Of a stretch of 44,176 bases of DNA, positions 1,105 through 44,165 are shown piece after piece. Made by a program: the position numbers and the translations under genes. Origin of the DNA: a virus (lineage: Duplodnaviria > Caudoviricetes); IMG/VR virus record IMGVR_UViG_3300046025_000011, positions 1 to 44,176 of that record; one strand, 5' to 3'. The notes beneath the pieces were generated by a model that saw only the letters and a program-made list of their open reading frames with translations, had not been told where the DNA came from and did no database searches. Within the stretch, counting starts at the first letter, position 1. Every line of letters begins with the position of its first letter.

Positions 1105-1122
1105 GGATTTACACTTAAGAGT
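1105..1122 (+). promoter_or_regulatory. Putative archaeal TATA-box promoter
   Basis: AT-rich gatttacacTTAAGag. The ~29-nt spacing seen at other promoters places the start site near 1144, just before structured element copy 1. Confidence 0.5.
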
Positions 1123-1147: not shown

Positions 1148-1217
1148 GCCGTCTTACCGCCCTGGGTCACTACGGCCCTGGCGGGGCGGTCGCCCTGGGC
1201 CGGGCGCGAACGGTCCA
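1148..1217 (+). ncRNA. Structured leader element, copy 1 (hairpin plus H-type pseudoknot)
   Basis: ccgtc/ggcgg, ccgc/gcgg and ggtc/ggcc helices, then pseudoknot cgcc/ggcg with tgggccg/cggtcca; 22 nt before ATG 1240. Confidence 0.75.
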
Positions 1218-3396: not shown

Positions 3397-3460
3397 TGAC
3401 GCGTTTTCCGGTAGCCAGTCCCCGTAGCGACTGGTCCAGGTTCGAATCCTGGCGCGTCGA
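3397..3460 (+). ncRNA. tRNA-like element lacking a D-stem
   Basis: Acceptor stem tgacgcg/cgcgtcg plus discriminator A; 11-nt unpaired segment containing GG; ccagtc/gactgg stem; canonical T-arm ccagg-TTCGAAT-cctgg. Confidence 0.7.
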
Positions 3461-3463
3461 TGT

Positions 3464-4984
3464 ATGTCCCAGGAAGCTGTCGGGACCCAGTCCGACCCGG
3501 ACCACGATCCGGACGCGGACGACGTCTCAGACTGGAACCAGGTCGTTCAGGGGATGAACCTGGACGTCCTGCAGAAGATGGAACAGAACAGCGTCGATGC
3601 CGTGGTCACGTCCCCGCCCTACTGGGGACTCCGCGACTACGACGGCGCGGATGTCACCTGGCCGGACGGCTGGGAAGGCCAACTGGGCCAGGAACCCGAC
3701 GTCGATCTGTTCCTGGACCACCTGCTGATGGTCTTCGAAGCAGTCCGTCGCGTCCTGAAGCCTACCGGCGCGCTGTGGGTGAACATCGACGACAAATATT
3801 CGAACAGCGTCACGGGAAGCCAGCCGTCCGGAGCTGACGGACGCCCCAGCCGCGACGCGTCCGAACACGCCGACCAGGGCCTGGACTTCGCCGCGCCCTA
3901 CAAGTCCCGGAACGCCATCCCGGAACGCTTCGTCGTCCGGATGGTCCAGGACGGCTGGGTCTACCGGAACGACGTCGTCTGGAACAAGTCGAACGCCATG
4001 CCGGAAGCCGTGAAGGACCGCCTGGCGCGACGCTGGGAACACGTCTACCTGTTCACGCCGACGGCGGACACATGGTTCGACCTGGACGCCATCCGCCAGC
4101 CCCACGTCGAAAGCAGTCAGCGACGCGTCCAGCGGAACACCTCCGGCCAGCAGAAGAACCCCGCCGACGGGATGCCGGACGACTTCCAGGGCGGCGAAAA
4201 CGACGGCCTGACCGCCGGTTCGACCGACCAGTGGATGCATCCGAACGGGAAGAACCCCGGCGACGTCTGGGAATTCGCTACCGCGTCCTACAGCGACGCC
4301 CACTTCGCGGTCTTCCCCGATGACCTCCCCCAGCGCGCCATCCAGGCGACGACGCCGCCGAAGGTCTGTCCCCAGTGTGGAACGCCGTTCGAACGCGTCA
4401 CGGAGCCCGCCGACCCGTGGTCCATCGAAGCGACCGGCAGGCCCCAGGCCGTCCGCGCTGTCGAACTGGCGCGGGAACACGACCTGACCACCGACCACCT
4501 GGAAGCCATCCGCGCCCGCGGCCTGAACGATCCGGGCAGAAAGACCGAAGAAGCGCAGACCGGAACCGGGCGAAACACCGACGACGTCGAACGCCTGGCG
4601 ATGGAAGCGAAAGACGCCCTGGGCGGCTACTACCGTGAATTCACGGCGACCGGCGAAGTCCCCATCGGCTGGGAACCCGGATGCGACCACGACGCGACCG
4701 CCAGCGACGCACCCGCCGGAACCGTCATCGACCCGTTCGGCGGCGCGGGAACCACCGGCCTGGTAGCGAAACACCTGAACCGACGCTGGTTGACCATCGA
4801 AATCAGCGACGACTACGCCCAGCAGGCCCGCGACCGCATCAGCGGAAAGATGGAACGAACCAAACAGTCACGACGCCGCGCGGAACGCGTCCAGAAACAG
4901 GCCCAGGACGCCGGCCAGACCCAGGCGTCCCTGAACACCTTCCAGGACACGTCCACCGACGCGGACGACGACACGGACGCGTAG
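3464..4984 (+). CDS. DNA amino-methyltransferase (N4-C/N6-A family, beta-class motif order)
   Basis: Motif IV VVTSPPYWGLRDY near the N-terminus, HFAVFP, and motif I VIDPFGGAGTTG near the C-terminus; CPQC-containing insert. Confidence 0.92.
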   Translation: MSQEAVGTQSDPDHDPDADDVSDWNQVVQGMNLDVLQKMEQNSVDAVVTSPPYWGLRDYDGADVTWPDGWEGQLGQEPDVDLFLDHLLMVFEAVRRVLKPTGALWVNIDDKYSNSVTGSQPSGADGRPSRDASEHADQGLDFAAPYKSRNAIPERFVVRMVQDGWVYRNDVVWNKSNAMPEAVKDRLARRWEHVYLFTPTADTWFDLDAIRQPHVESSQRRVQRNTSGQQKNPADGMPDDFQGGENDGLTAGSTDQWMHPNGKNPGDVWEFATASYSDAHFAVFPDDLPQRAIQATTPPKVCPQCGTPFERVTEPADPWSIEATGRPQAVRAVELAREHDLTTDHLEAIRARGLNDPGRKTEEAQTGTGRNTDDVERLAMEAKDALGGYYREFTATGEVPIGWEPGCDHDATASDAPAGTVIDPFGGAGTTGLVAKHLNRRWLTIEISDDYAQQARDRISGKMERTKQSRRRAERVQKQAQDAGQTQASLNTFQDTSTDADDDTDA

Positions 4985-32899: not shown

Positions 32900-34906
32900 A
32901 TGTCTTACAGAATCGAACTGGTCGCGCCGTCGGGCGACACGGCGACCATCGTGGACGACGACATCTACGACCTGGACGTCGTCCGGCCACACACGGCGCT
33001 GGCGGACTTCAAGGCGACCATCCCCTACAGCGCGAAGGCCATCCGCGACTGGGTCACGACGGTCGTGGAAGCCCGCATCAGCTACGACGGCGAACTGCTG
33101 TTCAGGGGCTACCTGGAAAGCGCGGACAGTAACGAACGCGACGGGACGACGACGCTGGAAGGCCGCGGCATCGGACGCGACCTGAAGGACCTGGAAACGT
33201 CCATCCGATTCACTGACACGGAAACCCACGTCGCCATCCAGCAGGTCTGGGACCTGTCCGACTTCGACGCGACGGTCTACAATCCGTCCGGGATTGGATC
33301 GACGAACCAGGACGGCCAGAACGCGACGACAACCGCGGAATTCGAAAACATCCTGTCTACACCGGCGACCAGCCCGTTCGACATCGCCGGCGACCAGGTC
33401 CAACCGCACAAAACCGCGTGGACGACCGAAGCGGAAAACTACGACGGCCAGACGGACACGTCTGACCCAGGTCACGCGGAATTCTCCGGCGGGTCCGGCG
33501 TTCGACTGGACGCCGACGGGGAAAGCGCCTACTGGGACTTCACGCCCCAGCATGATGTCCCCGTGGACGACGTCCAGCTATGGGTTCGGGAATACAGCGC
33601 CAGCGGAACCGGAAACGTCAGAATTTACTTCGGGACGCCGGGCGACCTGTCCCAGATCGACAACATCCGTGACACGAAGGACGCCATCGACCGGAGCTGG
33701 CGGGACTACGCGAACAACCCGCGAAACGGGACTGGCTACCAGGACGGCGACCTGCAGGCGGGGACGACCTATCGGTTCTTCATCGAAGCCGGGCCGACTG
33801 GCGGGACGAACGACGGTTACGACATCGACGTCGTCAGTCCACTGGACGCGCTGACCAGGTACGACCCGACGCCGACCTACACGTTCGACAACGACAACGG
33901 CGGGAACAGCGGCTACCTGGACGGCCCGGAATACTTCCCGACCAACGGCGTCCCGCTGGACTTCCAGATTATCGACGATGACGATAACATCGACGCCGCG
34001 GATTTGGTCACGACGTGGGACGACACGTCGAACGGTCAGGCGGTGAAGCTGTCGAACGACGGCGGCGGTTCGTTCCCACTGACGGCGTCGAACGCGACGG
34101 ACCTGTCCGGGGACTTCACGACGACCTACGGGTCGCGCCTGCAGTTCCGCGCGGTCATCGCCAGCTACGGGTCCAGATCGACGGCGACGCCCCAGCAGGG
34201 CTATCAGTTCCAGGCCATCCAGTCGATGGACCTGGACTACGAAAGCAGTCCGGTGAACGTCATCGAAGACAAGACGTTCAGCGGAAGCCTGCTGAACATC
34301 CTGCAGAAGCTTCACAAGAAGGCGGGCTACCGCTTTGCTATCGACCACGGGGCGATGGACGGAAACGGCGACCCGACGAAGGTGGTCGAAAGCTTCGAAC
34401 AGGGCGACCAGACGCGGCAGGCGGACTTCGTCGTGAACAATCGGAACCCGACGCGGGACCTGGAAGACTACGCGAACCGGGTCACGGTCTACGGGGCGCT
34501 GCTGGATGACGGGACCAGGCCGTCCGCGACCGTCCAGGACGACGCGGAAATCGCCGCGCTGGGTGGCGACCCGGACGGCGTTCGTCACGTCACGCTGGTC
34601 AGGCCGGACATGACGACGCTGGACGACGTCCGGGCGGAAGCGCGGTCCGAACTGGGTAGTCGCGTGTCGGAACGGAAGGACACGGGTTCGCTGGACATTC
34701 AGCCGGCGAACGTCCTTCCGGGCTACGACTACGACGTAGACTGGTACGGCGACGGAAATCCGACGGCGACGCCAAACGAAAAGGTCCAGTTCACGGCGGG
34801 GTATCAGAAGGCGTCTGGTCGCCTGCAGTTCACGCGGGACCGCGGGACGGCGTTCGCTTTGGTTCAGGCGCGCTACGCCCAGTCCATCACGGAAGACGCA
34901 ATCTGA
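32900..34906 (+). CDS. Baseplate hub/tail-tip protein with inserted beta-rich domain
   Basis: LFRGYLES...LEGRG at the N-terminus, YANRVTVYG near the C-terminus, and a large central Thr/Asp/Gly-rich insert. Confidence 0.65.
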   Translation: MSYRIELVAPSGDTATIVDDDIYDLDVVRPHTALADFKATIPYSAKAIRDWVTTVVEARISYDGELLFRGYLESADSNERDGTTTLEGRGIGRDLKDLETSIRFTDTETHVAIQQVWDLSDFDATVYNPSGIGSTNQDGQNATTTAEFENILSTPATSPFDIAGDQVQPHKTAWTTEAENYDGQTDTSDPGHAEFSGGSGVRLDADGESAYWDFTPQHDVPVDDVQLWVREYSASGTGNVRIYFGTPGDLSQIDNIRDTKDAIDRSWRDYANNPRNGTGYQDGDLQAGTTYRFFIEAGPTGGTNDGYDIDVVSPLDALTRYDPTPTYTFDNDNGGNSGYLDGPEYFPTNGVPLDFQIIDDDDNIDAADLVTTWDDTSNGQAVKLSNDGGGSFPLTASNATDLSGDFTTTYGSRLQFRAVIASYGSRSTATPQQGYQFQAIQSMDLDYESSPVNVIEDKTFSGSLLNILQKLHKKAGYRFAIDHGAMDGNGDPTKVVESFEQGDQTRQADFVVNNRNPTRDLEDYANRVTVYGALLDDGTRPSATVQDDAEIAALGGDPDGVRHVTLVRPDMTTLDDVRAEARSELGSRVSERKDTGSLDIQPANVLPGYDYDVDWYGDGNPTATPNEKVQFTAGYQKASGRLQFTRDRGTAFALVQARYAQSITEDAI

Positions 34907-34980
34907 CCCTGGCGTCGATCTTCTGCTGGTAATGCGTCGTTACTCCGGGCGTCGGCCAGCGGTAAGACGTCCCTGCTTTT

Positions 34981-34994
34981 CGAAAAGTATTAGT
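34981..34994 (+). promoter_or_regulatory. Putative BRE/TATA promoter of the accessory (early) region
   Basis: cgaaaAGTATTAg: a CGAAA BRE-like element next to an AT-rich box. Confidence 0.5.
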
Positions 34995-35413
34995 GGGGTG
35001 GTCGCATATGTCGAAGTAGGAAACACCTACACACGTTCGCTCCCGGCTGGCCCAGACCGGCCACAATTCTTCTGGGCGCGTCACCTGGCGGGGCGCGGTG
35101 GATCGAACACTGCAGTCGTCGATCTGCCGACCTGGGTGATGGCTACAGGACGCCCCCGGTCCCTTTCAGGCCAGCGTCGGCCTGCAGCGCGGGGCCGCCG
35201 ACCGCGTCCGTGACAGCCGGTTCACGGCAGGACGCGAAACAGGACACGAAACCGACGTCCAGACGGACGGCGACGAAGCGTCCGGCGGCCCACGGGTCGC
35301 CAGGGCGTGAAGGCTGGAACAGGCGGGCGTCGGTGGAACGGGCTGGGGCGAACCCGCCCGCGACCACGGTCAGGCATCACACGCTGACAGCCGTGGACGT
35401 GACGCTGGACACT

Positions 35414-35488
35414 ACCGTCTAACCGCTTCTGGTCAGCTCCGGCTGGCCCTGGCGGGACGGTCGCCCTGGGCCGGGCGCGAACGGTCCA
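35414..35488 (+). ncRNA. Structured leader element, copy 2
   Basis: ccgtc/gacgg, ccgc/gcgg, ggtcagc/gctggcc; pseudoknot cgcc/ggcg with tgggccg/cggtcca; 16 nt before ATG 35505. Confidence 0.8.
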
Positions 35489-35504
35489 CTTCACTTTTTC
35501 AACC

Positions 35505-36362
35505 ATGAACATCGGAAACACGGTCTACGAAATCGGCGGCCTGGAACAGACAGTTCGAACGTGGAAGATCGAAGACGTGGTCCGCGGCGACAGTGACGAC
35601 CCGTATTGGTGGGTCATCATGACCAGCGACCAGTTCCGCGTCATCGTGAAGGAACAGGACCTGAAGGCCCGCCTGGCCGAACAGAAATCCCGCGACGAAC
35701 TGACGGGACCGACGGACACACGGGACAAGGGCCGATGGCGGACGTTCAACCCCCGCCGGCGCGGCCAGGGCATCGTCCCCGCGGAACCGGACACGGACTT
35801 CGACCGAATCGACCGCGCCCTGTCCCCGCGCCGGGGGTCAGACCTGGACTTCGAACGGACACGCGATCTGTCCACGGTAAACGACTTCCTGGACCACCCC
35901 GCGCTGGTCAGCCATGACCTGGGCGGGACGAACTTCCCGGTCGCCATCTTCACCGCGCGGTCGCCCTACGACGGAAGCATCGTCGGAACGGTTGTCCTGA
36001 AGAAGCCGTCCGCCCGCGCCCTGGACGACTGGGAAGACGGCGGCCCCCACAACGGCGGCGATGGAACGCGGGTCGAAGTCGCCCGCCTGGCGACCCGCGT
36101 GGATCGACCAGCGAACACGGCGTCCTGGATGCTGGCCCGCTCCGCCCGCTGGGCCGACCAGCAGGGCTTCGGCATCATCCAGGCATACGCCGGAATGGCA
36201 AACAACCGCGGAACCTGCTACGACGCCGCCGGTTTCGACGTCCAGGCGACGGACGCTGAAGCGGACGGGGCGGCCTGGAACAGCGCGGATGACCGCGACG
36301 GACGCGTGGTCGTTCAGGACGGCGGAACCTGGACGCGACGCCGCTGGGAACGCGACCTATGA
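35505..36362 (+). CDS. Mom-like GNAT-fold DNA-modification protein
   Basis: VEVARLA...PANTASWMLARS...IQAYAG...GTCYDAAGF matches the Mom/XF1762-type EL.RL...N..S.....YAD....G..Y.AA.F pattern. Confidence 0.7.
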   Translation: MNIGNTVYEIGGLEQTVRTWKIEDVVRGDSDDPYWWVIMTSDQFRVIVKEQDLKARLAEQKSRDELTGPTDTRDKGRWRTFNPRRRGQGIVPAEPDTDFDRIDRALSPRRGSDLDFERTRDLSTVNDFLDHPALVSHDLGGTNFPVAIFTARSPYDGSIVGTVVLKKPSARALDDWEDGGPHNGGDGTRVEVARLATRVDRPANTASWMLARSARWADQQGFGIIQAYAGMANNRGTCYDAAGFDVQATDAEADGAAWNSADDRDGRVVVQDGGTWTRRRWERDL

Positions 36363-37543
36363 CTGACGACGACATCATCACGACCCGCGACCAGTACGGC
36401 CTGGACCACGACCTAAGCGACGTTCGATTCTACTGGGGCGTCGCATCAGGCGGGACCCACGCGGCGCTGTCCCGCGCGGTCGACGACGACAGCCTGCCGG
36501 ACCCGGACCACCTGATGGTTTCCTGGATGACGGCGATGAACGGCGTCTGGGAAGGCCCGGCGTGGTTCATCGACAGCGGCGGGGCTCCGGACACGATAAA
36601 GGCAAACGGCGGTCATCCGAAGCCCATCAGCGACCACCTGGACTACCTGGAAACCCCGCCGACGAAGTACGGGTCCGATCCGGAAGACGTCCAAATAGAC
36701 CGCTTCGCCCTTCGGGACTGGCCGTGTGAACCCGCGGTCCGCGACGAACTGGGGCTGACGGTCGAAGAACTACAGCAGAAGACCCTGGACGACCATATCC
36801 GGATGCTGGAAGCCGCCGACGGGCGCGACATCGACGCCCGGCCCGTCGCGGTCCTGCAGGGCTGGACGCCCGACGACTACCTGGACTGTCTGGACCTGTT
36901 CCGCGACCACGGCCTGGTTACGGACGCCATCGGCCTGGGTTCCGTGTGTAGGCGCGGCGGCCTGGATGACATCCAGGACATCGCCCACCGCGTCCGCCGG
37001 AACCTCCCTCCGCGCGTCGATCTACACGGCTTCGGCCTGAAGCAGTCGATGCTGGAACAGCCGGATGCCCTGGACGTCTTCGACAGCGTGGACAGCGCGG
37101 CCTGGGAAAACACACTACGGCAGGCGACCCGCGACGGCATCGACAAGGCCCCGCCCCAGCCGGACCTGACCTACCAGGACTGGGACGACTGGGACGACCG
37201 CGGAAACCCGCGCTACACGTTCGGGAACGTTCAGACCTGCTTCGACGGCTACGCGGCGAAGGTGAACGGCATCCGCGCGTCGAACGGGAAGGACGCGCGG
37301 ATCGTGGACCTGGCCGACTGGCCCGCGGTCATCGACCGCCTGGACGGCGACGGAACGGACGGCTACCCACTGCTGAAGTGTGTCTGTGGGACCATCGTCG
37401 ATCCAGGCCGTCCGGACCCTGGCCCGGACGTCGGCTGTCGTCACTGCCAGATGGCCGCGGTGAACATTTGGGACCGACACGTCGCCCACCGGGACCAGAC
37501 GCTTCACGGCGACTACCCGGACACGGACCTGCCGACGCCGTGA
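36359..37543 (+). CDS. TGT-fold, DpdA-like 7-deazaguanine DNA transglycosylase
   Basis: FIDSGG, DWPCEP, VLQGW, GLGSVCRR, LHGFGLK and DSVDSAAW motifs in TGT/DpdA order; C-terminal CVC...CRHC. Confidence 0.8.
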   Translation: MTDDDIITTRDQYGLDHDLSDVRFYWGVASGGTHAALSRAVDDDSLPDPDHLMVSWMTAMNGVWEGPAWFIDSGGAPDTIKANGGHPKPISDHLDYLETPPTKYGSDPEDVQIDRFALRDWPCEPAVRDELGLTVEELQQKTLDDHIRMLEAADGRDIDARPVAVLQGWTPDDYLDCLDLFRDHGLVTDAIGLGSVCRRGGLDDIQDIAHRVRRNLPPRVDLHGFGLKQSMLEQPDALDVFDSVDSAAWENTLRQATRDGIDKAPPQPDLTYQDWDDWDDRGNPRYTFGNVQTCFDGYAAKVNGIRASNGKDARIVDLADWPAVIDRLDGDGTDGYPLLKCVCGTIVDPGRPDPGPDVGCRHCQMAAVNIWDRHVAHRDQTLHGDYPDTDLPTP

Positions 37544-37550
37544 CCCGACC

Positions 37551-37626
37551 ACCGTCTAACCGCCCGTGGTCAGCTCCGGTTGACCCTGGCGGGGCGGTCG
37601 CCCACGGCCCTGGGCGTCGAACAGGG
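37551..37626 (+). ncRNA. Structured leader element, copy 3
   Basis: ggtcagc/gttgacc hairpin; pseudoknot cgcc/ggcg with ccctg/caggg; 14 nt before ATG 37641. Confidence 0.75.
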
Positions 37627-37640
37627 GACCAACTACCGAC

Positions 37641-37919
37641 ATGACCGTGACAGACGTCTACAGCCCATCAGAAACGGCGCTGGTAGATGCGATGGTCGGG
37701 GACACGCTGGAACTGTCCCAGTACGTCCAGGAAGTCAGTATCCTGGAACGCCGCCTGACCATCTACGGACTGGTCGTCATCGTCCAGTCCACGCATCCCG
37801 CCGCGTCAGCGAAGTATCGACTACGCGCGACCCACGGGGACGACCGCCTACTGCTGGAAAAGCAGGACGGCGACGACTGGACGTCCCACTGTCGCGTCGA
37901 AGCGACGAAGACCAACTGA
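37641..37919 (+). CDS. Hypothetical protein
   Basis: ORF directly after the leader element. Confidence 0.7.
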   Translation: MTVTDVYSPSETALVDAMVGDTLELSQYVQEVSILERRLTIYGLVVIVQSTHPAASAKYRLRATHGDDRLLLEKQDGDDWTSHCRVEATKTN

Positions 37920-37932
37920 CCTTTTCGAAATC

Positions 37933-38517
37933 ATGTCAGAACTACCGATGAGCCAGATCGACAGCGACGCATCGAACGACGAAGACGACCGCGACCCAGC
38001 CCAGCGACGCCGCGACCGCGGCATCACGAAGGAAATGGACGACCTGGACTGTCACGACTGCCAGACGCCCATCAGCCCGAACACCGGCATCCACGCCGAC
38101 GGCTGGTCCTACCGCGGCGGGACGTGTCCGAACTGCCGGTTCGGGGACGCCGCCAGGGTGGACGTCGATCCGGACGCCATCAGCGACAGGCGGAAACAGC
38201 GGCTGGCCCAGAAGCGCCGGTCGCCCCAGGCCCAGTCCTGCTTCCAGGCGGCGCTGTTCCTGGATCAGCAGGTCCCGGCTGGCCGCTACGTCATCCGACG
38301 CGTGACCGCCCACACGGTCCAGGTCCAGCTTCCGGACGACATCGACCAGGACGCCCGTCACGCGCTGGCTGACCGCTACAAGAACGCGACGAAGACGTCC
38401 GGGGAACGCGTCTGGTACGTGCAAAGCTTCCCGGACCGCATCAACCTGGTAGACTTCCAGTTCGGAACCCAGAACGAAGGGGAAAAGCCCCTGGTCACGG
38501 CCAACAGTGGTCCCTGA
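37933..38517 (+). CDS. Zn-finger protein
   Basis: CHDC...CPNC motifs. Confidence 0.7.
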   Translation: MSELPMSQIDSDASNDEDDRDPAQRRRDRGITKEMDDLDCHDCQTPISPNTGIHADGWSYRGGTCPNCRFGDAARVDVDPDAISDRRKQRLAQKRRSPQAQSCFQAALFLDQQVPAGRYVIRRVTAHTVQVQLPDDIDQDARHALADRYKNATKTSGERVWYVQSFPDRINLVDFQFGTQNEGEKPLVTANSGP

Positions 38518-38519
38518 CG

Positions 38520-38858
38520 ATGGAAGACATCATCACGAAAGCGGTCGCCCGCGCGGTCGCGGAACAGGAACAGAAGATGAAGGACGCGCTGGCGAACACC
38601 GACTGGGACCAGACCGCGGTCGTCCACTTCGTCCAGTACCAGCCCGACCTGGCGCGGGCGGTCGCCGGCCCGGACGACGACGTCGAAAAGGCCGACGTGG
38701 TCGGGGAAGTCAAAGTCCACCGCTACGGCGACCACGCGCCCCCGCTGGACGTCTACGCCGACGGACGGCGGAAGTATAACGTCCGGACGGTCACGAAGCC
38801 GCTTCTGGACCGCATCCAGGACGACCACGACGTGGACCTGCCGGAACAGTCCAGGTAG
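38520..38858 (+). CDS. Hypothetical protein
   Basis: Acidic ORF. Confidence 0.7.
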   Translation: MEDIITKAVARAVAEQEQKMKDALANTDWDQTAVVHFVQYQPDLARAVAGPDDDVEKADVVGEVKVHRYGDHAPPLDVYADGRRKYNVRTVTKPLLDRIQDDHDVDLPEQSR

Positions 38859-38873
38859 GTCCCGCGTCGATCT

Positions 38874-38952
38874 ACCGTCAAACCGCCGCGTGGTCAGCTC
38901 CGGCTGGCCCTGGCGGGGCGGTCGCCCTGGTCCTGGGCGGCGGACAGGACCA
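38874..38952 (+). ncRNA. Structured leader element, copy 4
   Basis: Same hairpin; pseudoknot cgcc/ggcg with a perfect 8-bp tggtcctg/caggacca; 14 nt before ATG 38967. Confidence 0.8.
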
Positions 38953-38966
38953 TCGACGATCGAAAC

Positions 38967-39500
38967 ATGGCGAACGAACTAATCGAACGGCTGGAAGGTC
39001 AGGGAACTGGCTACACAGTCATGGCGAAGCGAATCGACCCGGATGAACACCCAGCGATGGAACACGTCGGCTACAGCAGTCCGACGACCATCTTCACGGT
39101 CTGGACCGACGGCGGCGTCGCGGTTACGTCCCACGACGCCTACCAGGTCGTCCGCGACCTGGACGGCGACGACGACTGGCTTCTGGACGACCTGCAGGCG
39201 ATGGACGACGCCCTACGCGCTGCTGACGACCAGCCGGAAGTCGAAGAAGACGCTGGGAACCTGTTCATGGACCTGGCCCGCTACTACCACACGCAAACGC
39301 GGAAGGCCCAGGACAGCGCCCAGACCGCTGAAACGGACAGCGGCGGCGCGGTCCACGACGCCCGCGCTGGAGCCTACAGTCACGCCGCGACGGCGGCCCG
39401 CGAAACCGCCAGGTTCGCCCGCGGGGAACGCGACGACACGCCGACCGCGGTCGTGGTCGGGGAAGCGACGATGGCCGACGACGCGGGGACCGATGACTGA
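38967..39500 (+). CDS. Hypothetical protein
   Basis: ORF directly after the leader element. Confidence 0.75.
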   Translation: MANELIERLEGQGTGYTVMAKRIDPDEHPAMEHVGYSSPTTIFTVWTDGGVAVTSHDAYQVVRDLDGDDDWLLDDLQAMDDALRAADDQPEVEEDAGNLFMDLARYYHTQTRKAQDSAQTAETDSGGAVHDARAGAYSHAATAARETARFARGERDDTPTAVVVGEATMADDAGTDD

Positions 39501-39732
39501 CCAGGATCGACCGGGGACGGTCATCGAACACGGCGCGGACATTCAATTCACCGACGACCAGGACGTCCATCCCGCGAACTACGTTCGCATCCTGCCGAAC
39601 GGCTACGTGGAAGCCATCACGGCGACGTCCTACCAGGTGGACTACTACCCGCCCCACAAGGTCGCCGGCGTCCACACGCACACGACCGACGAACAGGAAG
39701 ACGACATCCTGGGCATCGACAAAGATGACTGA
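39493..39732 (+). CDS. Hypothetical protein
   Basis: MTDQDRPGTVIEHG...; 3' part of track ORF 39043..39732. Confidence 0.7.
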   Translation: MTDQDRPGTVIEHGADIQFTDDQDVHPANYVRILPNGYVEAITATSYQVDYYPPHKVAGVHTHTTDEQEDDILGIDKDD

Positions 39733-39895
39733 AACCAAAGCGTGTCGGGGCTACGGCGACCGACATGACTGTTCGAACGAAGTTCCCGAACACCTGCTGG
39801 ACGGCGGGCTTTGCCCGAAGTGCCGGGAACTGCAGCGAATCGACGCGGAAGAACGCCATCAGCAGACCAGGGACCCGACCCTGGAACCCTACTGA
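39725..39895 (+). CDS. 56-aa Zn-finger micro-protein (not in ORF track)
   Basis: MTETKACRGYGDRHDC...LCPKC... Confidence 0.65.
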   Translation: MTETKACRGYGDRHDCSNEVPEHLLDGGLCPKCRELQRIDAEERHQQTRDPTLEPY

Positions 39896-39897
39896 CC

Positions 39898-40371
39898 ATG
39901 TCGAAAAAGAAGACCTACAAGCAGTGGCTGGTCCTGGACTGGAAGACCGGGGACAGTCGCACACGAAAGAATAAGCCGTCGTCTTCGGAGCTGAAGGCGA
40001 ACGAAATACTGGCCGAACTGAAGGTGGACGTCGAAGTCCCGGAAGTGGACGTCCCGACGCTGGCCGTTCAGATCGACGTCCCCGAACCCCAGGTCTACCA
40101 GGCGACGCTGGAAGCCATCGACGACGAAGACCTGCCGGACTGGACCGACGCCGCGAACGAAATCCTGGCCGACCACCGGGGCGTCATCACCGACGCCTAC
40201 GACGAAGCTGAACTGGACGGCGTCGTGGACCAGATGGCGACCCAGACGCTGATGAACGCGCCCGGCAGGCCGCCGGTGGACCAGGTCCACGAATACCTGG
40301 ACGCCCAGGCGGTCCAGATGTTCCGCGACTACAAGAACGACGCTGACGACCAGGGGGAAGCCGATGTCTGA
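39898..40371 (+). CDS. Hypothetical protein
   Basis: MSKKKTYKQWLVLDWKTG...; ATG 39898 is the likely start. Confidence 0.75.
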   Translation: MSKKKTYKQWLVLDWKTGDSRTRKNKPSSSELKANEILAELKVDVEVPEVDVPTLAVQIDVPEPQVYQATLEAIDDEDLPDWTDAANEILADHRGVITDAYDEAELDGVVDQMATQTLMNAPGRPPVDQVHEYLDAQAVQMFRDYKNDADDQGEADV

Positions 40372-40813
40372 CATGGACTTCGACGGCGCGGCGGACATCG
40401 CTGACGCCATCGAACAGGCCGGCGGGCGCGTTCGTGACTTCGACGTCGGACAGGCCGCGCCCCAACCCCAGGGCATCATCGACCTGACGGCGCTGATGAA
40501 GTCCAGCGTCACGGTCTACCACTTCGCGGTCGAAGTCCCCAGCGACACGACGCGGGACATCGACATCGACCAGCAGGACCCGGTCGAACGCGAAGCCATC
40601 GTCAGCTTCCTGGCGTCGATGCTGGAAGCGGGCGACGGGATGCCGGTGGACCCGGACATGACGCCGGCCCAGAACCTTCGGGCGGTCGTGGGTCAGACCG
40701 ACTACGATCTGTCGATGTTCCGCGAAGCCTACGACCGCGTCCACGACGACCTACCGACTGGGTGGGACGCTGGTCCGCCGCCGGAACCAGACGCCGAAGC
40801 GGACGACGCGTAG
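40364..40813 (+). CDS. Hypothetical protein
   Basis: Acidic ORF overlapping the upstream gene. Confidence 0.75.
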   Translation: MSDMDFDGAADIADAIEQAGGRVRDFDVGQAAPQPQGIIDLTALMKSSVTVYHFAVEVPSDTTRDIDIDQQDPVEREAIVSFLASMLEAGDGMPVDPDMTPAQNLRAVVGQTDYDLSMFREAYDRVHDDLPTGWDAGPPPEPDAEADDA

Positions 40814-40837
40814 CCAGCCGACCTTTCGAATTCTTTC

Positions 40838-40914
40838 CCGTCTAACCGTCCACGGTCAGCCGCGACTACTGACCTGGCGGGGCGGTCGCCCGCGGGCTGG
40901 GCGTCAAACAGTCC
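40838..40914 (+). ncRNA. Structured leader element, copy 5
   Basis: ggtcag/ctgacc hairpin; pseudoknot cgcc/ggcg with gggctg/cagtcc; 13 nt before ATG 40928. Confidence 0.75.
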
Positions 40915-40927
40915 AGGTGTTAGAACG

Positions 40928-41560
40928 ATGCCAGACCACACGGCAGACTACGACGAAGGCGAACAGTACCACTTCAGGAACGACATCCGGCCCGGCGACG
41001 TCGTCCACGACCTGGCCCAGATGGGCTGGCCGCGGATGCGGGTCATCAGGCAGGAAGCCCCGTCCGTCGCGGACTACATCGACAGCCGCGGACAGGACCT
41101 TCGGGACTACGAAAAGAACGCGCTGGCCGGCGCTGACCTGGACGACCGCGTCTTCCTGACCACGTTCCTGACCGACAGCCCGATGAACGCCGCGAAGACC
41201 CACTACCCGATCCCGGAAAGCCGGATCGCGAAGCAGGACCTGACCAGCCAGGCGTCCCATATCGGGGACGACCCGGACCAGGTGTTCCATCCCGCGGACC
41301 AGGCGGTCTACGAATTCCTGGTCGCGCTGCTGACCGAACTGAAGACCGTCGTCAGCGTGGAGTACGCGAACGACGTCCGGTCCGCCGTGGACGAAGTCCT
41401 GGACCATCCGGAGCTGACCGACGCCGCCGACGACGTGTCCCACGCGCGGATGCGGGACCGCCAGGACCAGCAGGCCGACACGGACGACGACCAGGACCAG
41501 GACCAGGACGTCGACGATGACGGCTTGGGCGACTTCGAAGACTTCGACGGGGACGCCTGA
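40928..41560 (+). CDS. Hypothetical protein
   Basis: IRPGDVVHDL...YPIPESRI pattern, possibly SH3-like; acidic tail. Confidence 0.75.
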   Translation: MPDHTADYDEGEQYHFRNDIRPGDVVHDLAQMGWPRMRVIRQEAPSVADYIDSRGQDLRDYEKNALAGADLDDRVFLTTFLTDSPMNAAKTHYPIPESRIAKQDLTSQASHIGDDPDQVFHPADQAVYEFLVALLTELKTVVSVEYANDVRSAVDEVLDHPELTDAADDVSHARMRDRQDQQADTDDDQDQDQDVDDDGLGDFEDFDGDA

Positions 41561-43843: not shown

Positions 43844-44165
43844 CGTCGCCCTGCTGGCCGGGACCGCGGTCGTCCTGGTCGCCATCACGGGCGTCCTGGC
43901 CTACAAGGCGGGGAAGAACGACGCCGACGCCCCGCCGGTCCTGGTCCCACTGGACTACGACCCGGACTCCCACTACGGCGACCACGTCATCGTCGCCCGC
44001 GTGAAGTACGACCAGACCGGGAACCGCGAAACGCTGGCCGTCCTGGACGATGGCCGGTCTGACCACGAAGCGAAGCAGGCCATCCAGAACCAGGTCCGCG
44101 GCGTCGAAGTCGACGAACTGATAGACACGCCGCTTAACGAATGCGGACCCGGAGCTGATGACTAG
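43836..44165 (+). CDS. Membrane-anchored hypothetical protein
   Basis: N-terminal hydrophobic helix; the stop position depends on the mismatched base in the terminal repeat. Confidence 0.7.
   Translation: MTDVALLAGTAVVLVAITGVLAYKAGKNDADAPPVLVPLDYDPDSHYGDHVIVARVKYDQTGNRETLAVLDDGRSDHEAKQAIQNQVRGVEVDELIDTPLNECGPGADD

Follow-up and report, generated by a model that had tools for sequence, protein, structure and literature searches.

A family of structured RNA elements occurs in viruses related to Haloarcula hispanica tailed virus 1 (HHTV-1), of the family Madisaviridae. The window, i.e., the whole 44,176-nt stretch of viral DNA analyzed here (IMG/VR record IMGVR_UViG_3300046025_000011, positions 1 to 44,176), carries five of the 25 copies found. 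These are spread over six viruses, with three to five copies in each, all on the sense strand of the early region. The element is 65 to 150 nt long, and its sense-strand fold is an 11- to 12-bp bulged hairpin followed by a compact pseudoknot. Judged by sequence comparison, this is a real and strongly covarying RNA element family of HHTV-1-like viruses, absent from Rfam and from the literature searched. It is tentatively proposed, at somewhat less than an even chance, that downstream mRNAs are released from a long early transcript and that the element marks their 5' ends and guards them.

Element copies in the window

The window is the genome of an HHTV-1-like halovirus. Its capsid protein and that of HHTV-1 share 55.5% identity, and family matches identified terminase, capsid, tape measure, Mom-like and DpdA genes. 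The first 27 nt are repeated at 44150 with 1 mismatch, indicating that the record is circularly permuted. All five copies therefore lie in a single non-structural region that begins at 35.4 kb, crosses the end of the record and stops at 1.2 kb, and copy 1 is no outlier. The first-pass annotation had described five copies of a hairpin plus pseudoknot, and all five were found where it had placed them, with the same stems:

1148..1217, + strand: element copy 1, the last one of the early region once the permutation is taken into account; followed by an ATG at 1240
35414..35488, + strand: element copy 2, first in the early transcript; ATG of the Mom-like gene at 35505
35414-35461, part of copy 2: P1, 3-nt bulge, P2 and apical hairpin
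35462-35488, part of copy 2: H-type pseudoknot
37551..37626, + strand: element copy 3, 7 nt past the stop of the DpdA gene; ATG at 37641
38874..38952, + strand: element copy 4; ATG at 38967
40837..40914, + strand: element copy 5, with a T-rich patch in front and the gene at 40928 behind

The core pattern occurred five times in the window, against 0.01 expected from 100 dinucleotide shuffles, and a search of the window for a sixth copy found none. Copies 3 to 5 begin 7, 15 and 23 nt past the upstream stop codon, inside the 7 to 24 nt reported previously, and the ATGs lie 13 to 22 nt behind the copy ends, as they had been placed. Copy 3 has the weakest pseudoknot: its stem 2 has 5 bp, its loop 1 is long, and the strict descriptor does not match it. 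A predicted long hairpin spans the stop codon upstream of copy 4 and ends 4 nt before that copy. Homologues of the gene at 40928 occur directly behind a copy in the related genome G001 and, in HHTV-1, as the second gene after a copy.

Fold and covariation

The hairpin has a characteristic frame. Its 5' side consists of four paired bases ending in CCG, five further bases, and five paired bases starting with CC; a variable apex of 12 to 94 nt, the partner strand, two purines and CGGT follow. P1 and P2 together make up the 11 to 12 bp and contain near-invariant base pairs. In the 5-by-2 loop between them, the first two bases are paired in copies of the window type and the last one or two in copies of the HHTV-1 type, leaving an A-containing bulge. 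A link of 0 to 2 nt joins the hairpin to the 4-bp stem 1 of the pseudoknot. Loop 1 has 1 to 2 nt and loop 3 has 4 to 6 nt, each in 23 of the 25 copies, and stem 2 has 6 to 8 bp as parsed.

Across the 25 copies, stem 1 occurs in 13 distinct versions and stem 2 in 20. With a parser that picked registers that pair and imposed a zero spacer between the stems, the strands of stem 1 paired at 100% within copies versus 52% across copies, and those of stem 2 at 98% versus 61%. Since this choice of registers favored pairing, a cleaner test is the descriptor pseudoknot directly behind the hairpin, which was found in 21 of the 25 copies but in only 0.14% of genome windows. There were 29 G-U pairs and no A-C oppositions, indicating that it is the sense strand that folds.

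Among the eight window and G001 copies, 9 of 21 pairs were changed on both sides, a number reached by none of 500 shuffles. In a 27-row alignment, which includes two weak or partial rows and a bacterial row and in which stem 1 is misregistered for the window-type rows, 15 of 23 pairs were changed on both sides, as in 1 of 500 shuffles. These shuffles ignore relatedness; slid controls dropped to 27 to 61% paired. The G-G and A-G cells of the P1/P2 pair table are due to one start in genome G009 that was entered one base off. Folding z-scores of single copies were weak (-0.4 to -2.8) with a program that scores no pseudoknots, and the case therefore rests on covariation, not on energy.

These comparisons indicate that the pseudoknot is conserved in shape only, while the base of the hairpin is conserved in sequence. 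The earlier suggestion that selection acts on the folded sense strand is supported by the covariation of both pseudoknot stems. Stem 1, which had been called invariant, is so inside the window genome but not across the family.

Distribution and searches

A capsid-alignment search gave 11 loci, nine of them new records; three (G005, G010 and G012) are structural-gene fragments only. Capsid identity to the window is 44 to 55% across the element-carrying viruses, and the orthologous positions of the copies are kept across them. The window and G009 have five copies each, G001, HHTV-1 and G004 have four, and G006 has three. The copies of G001 were found by a pattern scan. A model built from the eight window and G001 copies gave a marginal match in HHTV-1 just before gp55, and inspection of the intergenic DNA of HHTV-1 revealed a diverged form of the element, with four copies in this cultured virus (P1 at about positions 35048, 36111, 37690 and 40326 of NC_021322.1). 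A structure-only descriptor recovered 12 of the 13 copies known at that stage and had no match in eight other halovirus genomes (both strands) or in six shuffles.

No copy was found in HCTV-2, HHTV-2, HATV-3, ChaoS9, CGphi46, phiH1, Hardycor1 or G003, nor in G007, G008 or G011. The last three are close relatives of HHTV-1, with capsid proteins 79 to 80% identical to its own. The nearly complete G008 (L270-L272) has a swapped early module and lacks both the element and the leader RNA described below; G007 shares the start of that module.

Among the matches listed, window-type pattern scans of viral contigs gave real copies only in G001; in one of them, G001 alone held a real copy among at least 118 loci. 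L131, and the pattern matches outside G001 in another viral scan, lacked the second domain. All 17 of 17 metagenome pattern matches lacked the paired structure on inspection. Six bacterial matches of a genome scan were dropped; the best (E = 0.0039, model R2) was pattern-selected and had a 3-bp stem 1 and a 4-bp stem 2. Searches with blastn gave no match in plasmids and chance matches only in phages, and three brine DNA runs contained close relatives only.

Rfam 15 gave no match over any window copy at E values up to 5 or over the leader plus first copy at E up to 10; at E up to 1, it also gave none over the copies of G001 or those in a 20-kb stretch taken from each of G004, G006 and G009. This agrees with the first reading of the sequence, in which no known family had been recognized. 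The literature searched, with subscription papers and supplements outside its scope, held no account of the element or of any pseudoknotted cis-acting halovirus RNA, although the repeats could still be mentioned in the original description of the HHTV-1 genome or in a large survey of viral RNA motifs.

Leader RNA and predicted early promoter

In all six viruses, the first copy lies directly behind a structured leader of 400 to 500 nt, and a counterpart of the TATA-like motif of the predicted early promoter lies 427 to 533 nt before it. For copy 2 of the window, the distance to this conserved motif is 427 nt. The features are as follows:

34982..34994, + strand: predicted early promoter (purine-rich motif resembling a B recognition element, plus TATA-like motif)
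35016..35413, + strand: large structured non-coding leader, ending at copy 2
35059..35067, + strand: leader hairpin-loop motif GGCCACAAT, on differing stems in the leaders of all six viruses, with a one-letter variant in G004
L007 34622-35048; L263 14620-14190 (- strand); L265 8600-8167 (- strand): leader counterparts
L274 11020-11420; L129 about 4270-3772 (- strand): further leader counterparts

The leader stretch is 70% conserved in four viruses, and 33 of 94 predicted pairs are changed on both sides. The open reading frames (ORFs) 34932-35213 and 35210-35422, which run over the leader, had no family match and are probably not genes. In HHTV-1, the annotated ORF 34585-34842 overlaps the leader and may be spurious. 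The leader itself had no Rfam match. An identity as RNase P, considered because of certain motifs, was not supported, with no Rfam match and with the candidate 3' stretch pairing locally. A profile of the HHTV-1-clade leader had no match in the window or G001, so full leader homology across the two groups is not established. On this evidence, the leader is a second uncatalogued large structured RNA beside the element.

Start-codon side

The copies precede start codons of genes that are not overlapped by the upstream gene and head blocks of overlapping early genes. HHTV-1 has 31 early junctions, six with gaps of at least 10 nt, and copies occupy three of these six, namely the three largest. Its fourth copy and the annotated start of gp43 overlap, and an in-frame ATG follows 29 nt after the copy. 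The distance from pseudoknot to start codon ranges from 7 to 58 nt, and copies of the HHTV-1 type often add a further hairpin. A Shine-Dalgarno (SD)-like motif is present in 8 of the 23 copies with a called start and absent in 15; two copies had no automatic start, and one had two in-frame candidates (2 or 41 nt). The spacers of the window and G001 are 8 to 22 nt long in eight of nine cases and nearly unstructured.

On these alignments, the start-codon side is unconstrained, and the variable distance argues against an internal ribosome entry site (IRES) of fixed register. The IRES-like role listed first among the earlier candidates is thus weakened by the distance, the added hairpins and the SD-like motifs.

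Upstream side

A U-rich, G-poor patch adjoins the hairpin. Positions -7 to -1 are T-rich, T is at position -3 in 18 of the 25 copies, and G occurs at -3 to -1 only once. TTT was found within 12 nt upstream of 14 of the 25 copies, compared with 2 to 5% of genome windows. Seven of the 25 sense T4 runs in the early regions fall within 14 nt before a copy, where 0.13 would be expected if they were uniform. Positions -6 to -1 are predicted to be unpaired at 0.64, versus 0.48 with shuffled upstream sequence. The patch resembles the T stretch plus C at intergenic RNA 3' ends in Haloferax (PMC7237163), as well as the U-rich, G-depleted RNA ends of Methanosarcina (PMC13675443). Stop-to-element gaps are 7 to 205 nt.

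Other settings occur on this side. One G001 copy begins 3 to 4 nt behind an intron-bearing tRNA identified by an Rfam match. This viral tRNA (L129 1400-1227, - strand) has a long intron-like insert and a long variable arm. A TATA-like motif lies 34 nt before copy 1:

1113..1121, + strand: TATA-like motif

With the 30-nt TATA spacing of leaderless genes in the window genome, the start site would fall about 4 nt before the copy 1 hairpin. There was no TATA enrichment at -25 to -30 before the 25 copies, whereas a TATA box is visible 30 nt before leaderless genes of the structural region. In each of these settings, an RNA end is plausible just 5' of P1, be it through transcription initiation, removal of a tRNA trailer, the terminus of a large RNA, or a tract that resembles a terminator. 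The role as a processing site or exonuclease block, also among the earlier candidates, gains support from the 5' U-rich patch and from the tRNA-adjacent and leader-adjacent copies.

At L007 40300-40326 and at the orthologous positions in G001, G004, G006 and G009, a TATA-like run adjoins the element, in most cases preceded by a small covarying hairpin. If this run served as a promoter, transcription would begin within the element; in G004 and G009, the run and the 5' strand of P1 together make up a palindrome. In the structural region, the HHTV-1 clade has a recurring promoter-like motif (L007 6560-6605, 24060-24105 and 31060-31107, and relatives), made up of a short inverted repeat followed by a TATA box 30 to 31 nt before leaderless ATGs.

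Other features of the early region

The window combines Mom-like, DpdA and DNA methyltransferase genes (35505-37543 and 3464-4984), i.e., several DNA-modification systems in one halovirus. An early protein with an ASCH domain, an RNA-binding fold, is encoded at 422-796 and had no match in the other carriers. The protein at 1671-2198 (HHTV-1 gp64) is the only early protein detected in all six carriers and was not detected in G008; the protein database holds six homologues besides itself, and there is a weak lead to a PD-(D/E)XK/Hjc-like fold. A tRNA-like fold at 3398-3459, missed by ARAGORN and Rfam, has an acceptor stem, an anticodon-like arm, a T arm and almost no D arm.

Proposed function: a guarded 5' end

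A plausible RNA end just 5' of P1 everywhere, combined with a floating start-codon side, suggested that the element guards a 5' end. In the proposed mechanism, the TATA-like promoter would start one long early transcript, and host nucleases (aCPSF1/FttA, tRNase Z or other) would then cleave this transcript, either within the unpaired U patch or on the 3' side of the tRNA. The fold would leave few unpaired nucleotides at the new end and halt 5'-to-3' decay, with the pseudoknot as a second barrier, so that the downstream block would persist as a stable leadered mRNA. T4 gene 32 mRNA, the most stable T4 mRNA, is cut at -71 and has its pseudoknot at -67 (PMC3014915). FttA cleaves U-rich RNA at a distance of 22 nt from the growing 3' end, after which it degrades in the 5'-to-3' direction (PMC11616081).

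Several observations weigh against this proposal. The FttA cut precedes the 70-nt element, so the fold cannot shield a co-transcriptional cut; by FttA geometry, the cut itself would be placed about 7 nt into the hairpin. Only later cuts would be survivable, and a further factor, perhaps the leader, would be required for strong tracts to be passed. A Haloferax reporter showed no downstream fragment after T5C (PMC7237163). None of the five window copies has a T4 run in front, and copy 2 has a T5C run behind instead:

about 35495-35500, + strand: T5C run, 6 to 7 nt behind copy 2 and before the ATG at 35505

T runs are in any case expected between genes, and the T control was genome-wide rather than intergenic. 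Upstream hairpins are barely more paired than shuffles (0.37 versus 0.43 unpaired). A ring pairing around the 5' end, as in exonuclease-resistant RNAs (xrRNAs), is not evident in the secondary structure. The tRNA-like structure at 3398-3459 has no copy behind it; its end lies 4 nt short of the DNA methyltransferase ATG at 3464, and the mRNA would be leaderless after a 3' cut there. Protection could also come from a plain hairpin, which leaves the invariant pairs, the bulge and the pseudoknot without a full explanation, and the invariant pairs suggest a bound partner.

One rival explanation is a put-/EAR-like antiterminator. By binding to the elongation complex of the archaeal host (RNA polymerase, Spt4/5) or by excluding FttA, the nascent fold would let transcription pass the T tracts of the early operon. 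The length of about 70 nt, the two helical domains, the bulge and the pairs that stay invariant across viruses with 44 to 55% capsid identity to the window are what a conserved host partner would lead one to expect; copies recur every 1 to 5 kb, and copy 2 is followed at 6 to 7 nt by T5C, which terminates 95% in Haloferax (PMC7237163). HK022 put RNA is of about the same length, has two stems and lies in early transcripts, with putR about 270 nt from the start, but it acts over 10 kb without tethering, which would make three to five copies redundant (PMC9378689). Most T patches are 5' of the element, where the nascent RNA cannot yet act, and the pseudoknot has no conserved sequence. Antitermination is considered unlikely. 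A translational operator, in which a viral protein binds the bulged hairpin or the pseudoknot and shuts the first cistron and the coupled block, as T4 gp32 does, appears very unlikely. In its favor, the geometry of the gene 32 operator (class CPK-1) is found in 17 of the 25 pseudoknots, or 23 if an 8-bp stem 2 is allowed, and the likeness of the domain 1 core is higher within genomes (0.90) than between them (0.74), but the latter could also arise through duplication or gene conversion. The early protein at 1671-2198 accompanies the element in all six carriers and not in G008; however, its fold lead is weak, and G008 lacks nearly the whole early module, so this co-occurrence is uninformative.

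An IRES-like initiation enhancer that brings 30S subunits or initiation factors to the uncoupled gene at the head of a block would fit copies that precede non-overlapped genes and occupy the three largest early gaps of HHTV-1, the short and nearly unstructured window and G001 spacers, and the 15 of 23 starts without an SD-like motif. It is nevertheless distinctly unlikely: the distance of 7 to 58 nt with an optional hairpin between gives no fixed register, 8 of 23 starts have SD-like motifs, and the 5' U patch and the tRNA and leader adjacency would be left unexplained. Very unlikely as well are a self-cleaving ribozyme, a tRNA mimic directing RNase P or tRNase Z to its base, and a DNA-level attC-like hairpin. 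attC hairpins have a variable apex, which the apex of 12 to 94 nt in the element resembles. There is, however, no integrase among the window family matches or in the HHTV-1 annotation, and the copies keep orthologous positions; the loop geometry is moreover that of A-form RNA (CPK-1; PMC3835772). For the tRNA mimic, the 11 to 12 bp of P1 plus P2 and a CCA near the 3' end in 8 of the 25 copies would fit, but a T-loop is present in none of the 25 apices. The copy 3 to 4 nt behind a tRNA recalls theta ribozymes (PMC10879173), yet the nested double pseudoknot is absent and loops 1 and 3 have no invariant unpaired nucleotide.

The guarded 5' end could also be part of something larger, though this is somewhat unlikely: an RNA-only early-expression program, in which the leader and three to five elements turn host cuts (FttA, tRNase Z) into cut-and-continue junctions. 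If true, a DNA virus would possess an exonuclease-resistant or anti-torpedo RNA of archaeal type, and the leader might act as an antiterminator or a processing ribozyme. It is an open question how the long operons of archaeal viruses are expressed in the face of FttA termination, as is the way in which haloarchaeal mRNAs with a leader but no SD motif are protected and initiated. Since natural variants exist in a cultured virus (HHTV-1) on a named host (Haloarcula hispanica), each rival role is directly testable. Whatever its role, the element could be a portable expression part for haloarchaea.

Comparison with known RNA systems

The element differs from several classes of functional RNA. At 7 to 58 nt from the start codon, it lacks the fixed register of IRESs of the hepatitis C virus or dicistrovirus type. 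For a tRNA-like or t-element RNA, the T-loop is missing in all 25 copies, CCA near the end is limited to 8 of 25, and ARAGORN was negative on the window. No copy has the slippery site of a frameshift or read-through pseudoknot, and the stop gaps are 7 to 205 nt. The GA after the 3-nt bulge of a kink-turn was found in 0 of 25, and by inspection the geometry is not that of a bulge-helix-bulge. The early region of T7 has about five related structured RNase III sites between early genes, which segment one long transcript. Those sites are simple hairpins cut within by a bacterial enzyme, whereas the elements carry a pseudoknot and seem to start at the boundary.

Theta ribozymes, which are hepatitis delta virus (HDV)-like, lie directly 3' of viral tRNAs (PMC10879173), a position shared by one of the 25 copies. 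The element has a hairpin and then a single pseudoknot, with neither the nested double pseudoknot nor the catalytic C junction (J4/2) of the HDV-like fold. The Hardycor1 intergenic repeats are likewise related repeats upstream of several halovirus ORFs, but they are AT-rich and promoter-like (PMC7911831), and Hardycor1 had no strict descriptor match. HK022 put shares two helical domains with bulges and repetition in early phage transcripts; it consists of two stem-loops and binds the bacterial beta' zinc domain (PMC9378689). The second domain of the element is a pseudoknot, and the first copies are 427 to 533 nt from the TATA-like motif of the predicted early promoter, most others being kilobases away, right behind U patches. 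Like viral xrRNAs, the element is a pseudoknotted viral RNA conserved in shape, and a block of 5'-to-3' nucleases is proposed for it; known xrRNAs also stop RNase J1 (PMC8374639). They are defined by a ring of 15 to 16 nt around the 5' end that is closed by a pseudoknot (PMC8374639). The element, from a double-stranded DNA archaeal virus, has a hairpin and a pseudoknot in series, with no three-way junction or loop-to-3' pairing evident.

The gene 32 leader of T4 and T2 differs in its surroundings: the element adds a conserved bulged hairpin before the pseudoknot, occurs in three to five copies before unrelated genes, has an archaeal host, and lacks a long A+U tract running to the start codon. 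Both share a compact H-type pseudoknot with a 6- to 7-bp stem 2 and a 1- to 2-nt loop 1 (PMC3014915, PMC3835772). For domain 2 only, the element falls in the CPK-1 class (stem 2 of 6 to 7 bp, loop 1 of 1 to 2 nt, no spacer), strictly so in the 17 copies noted above. In T4 and T2, an endonuclease cut 4 nt 5' of this pseudoknot yields a stable species (PMC3014915).

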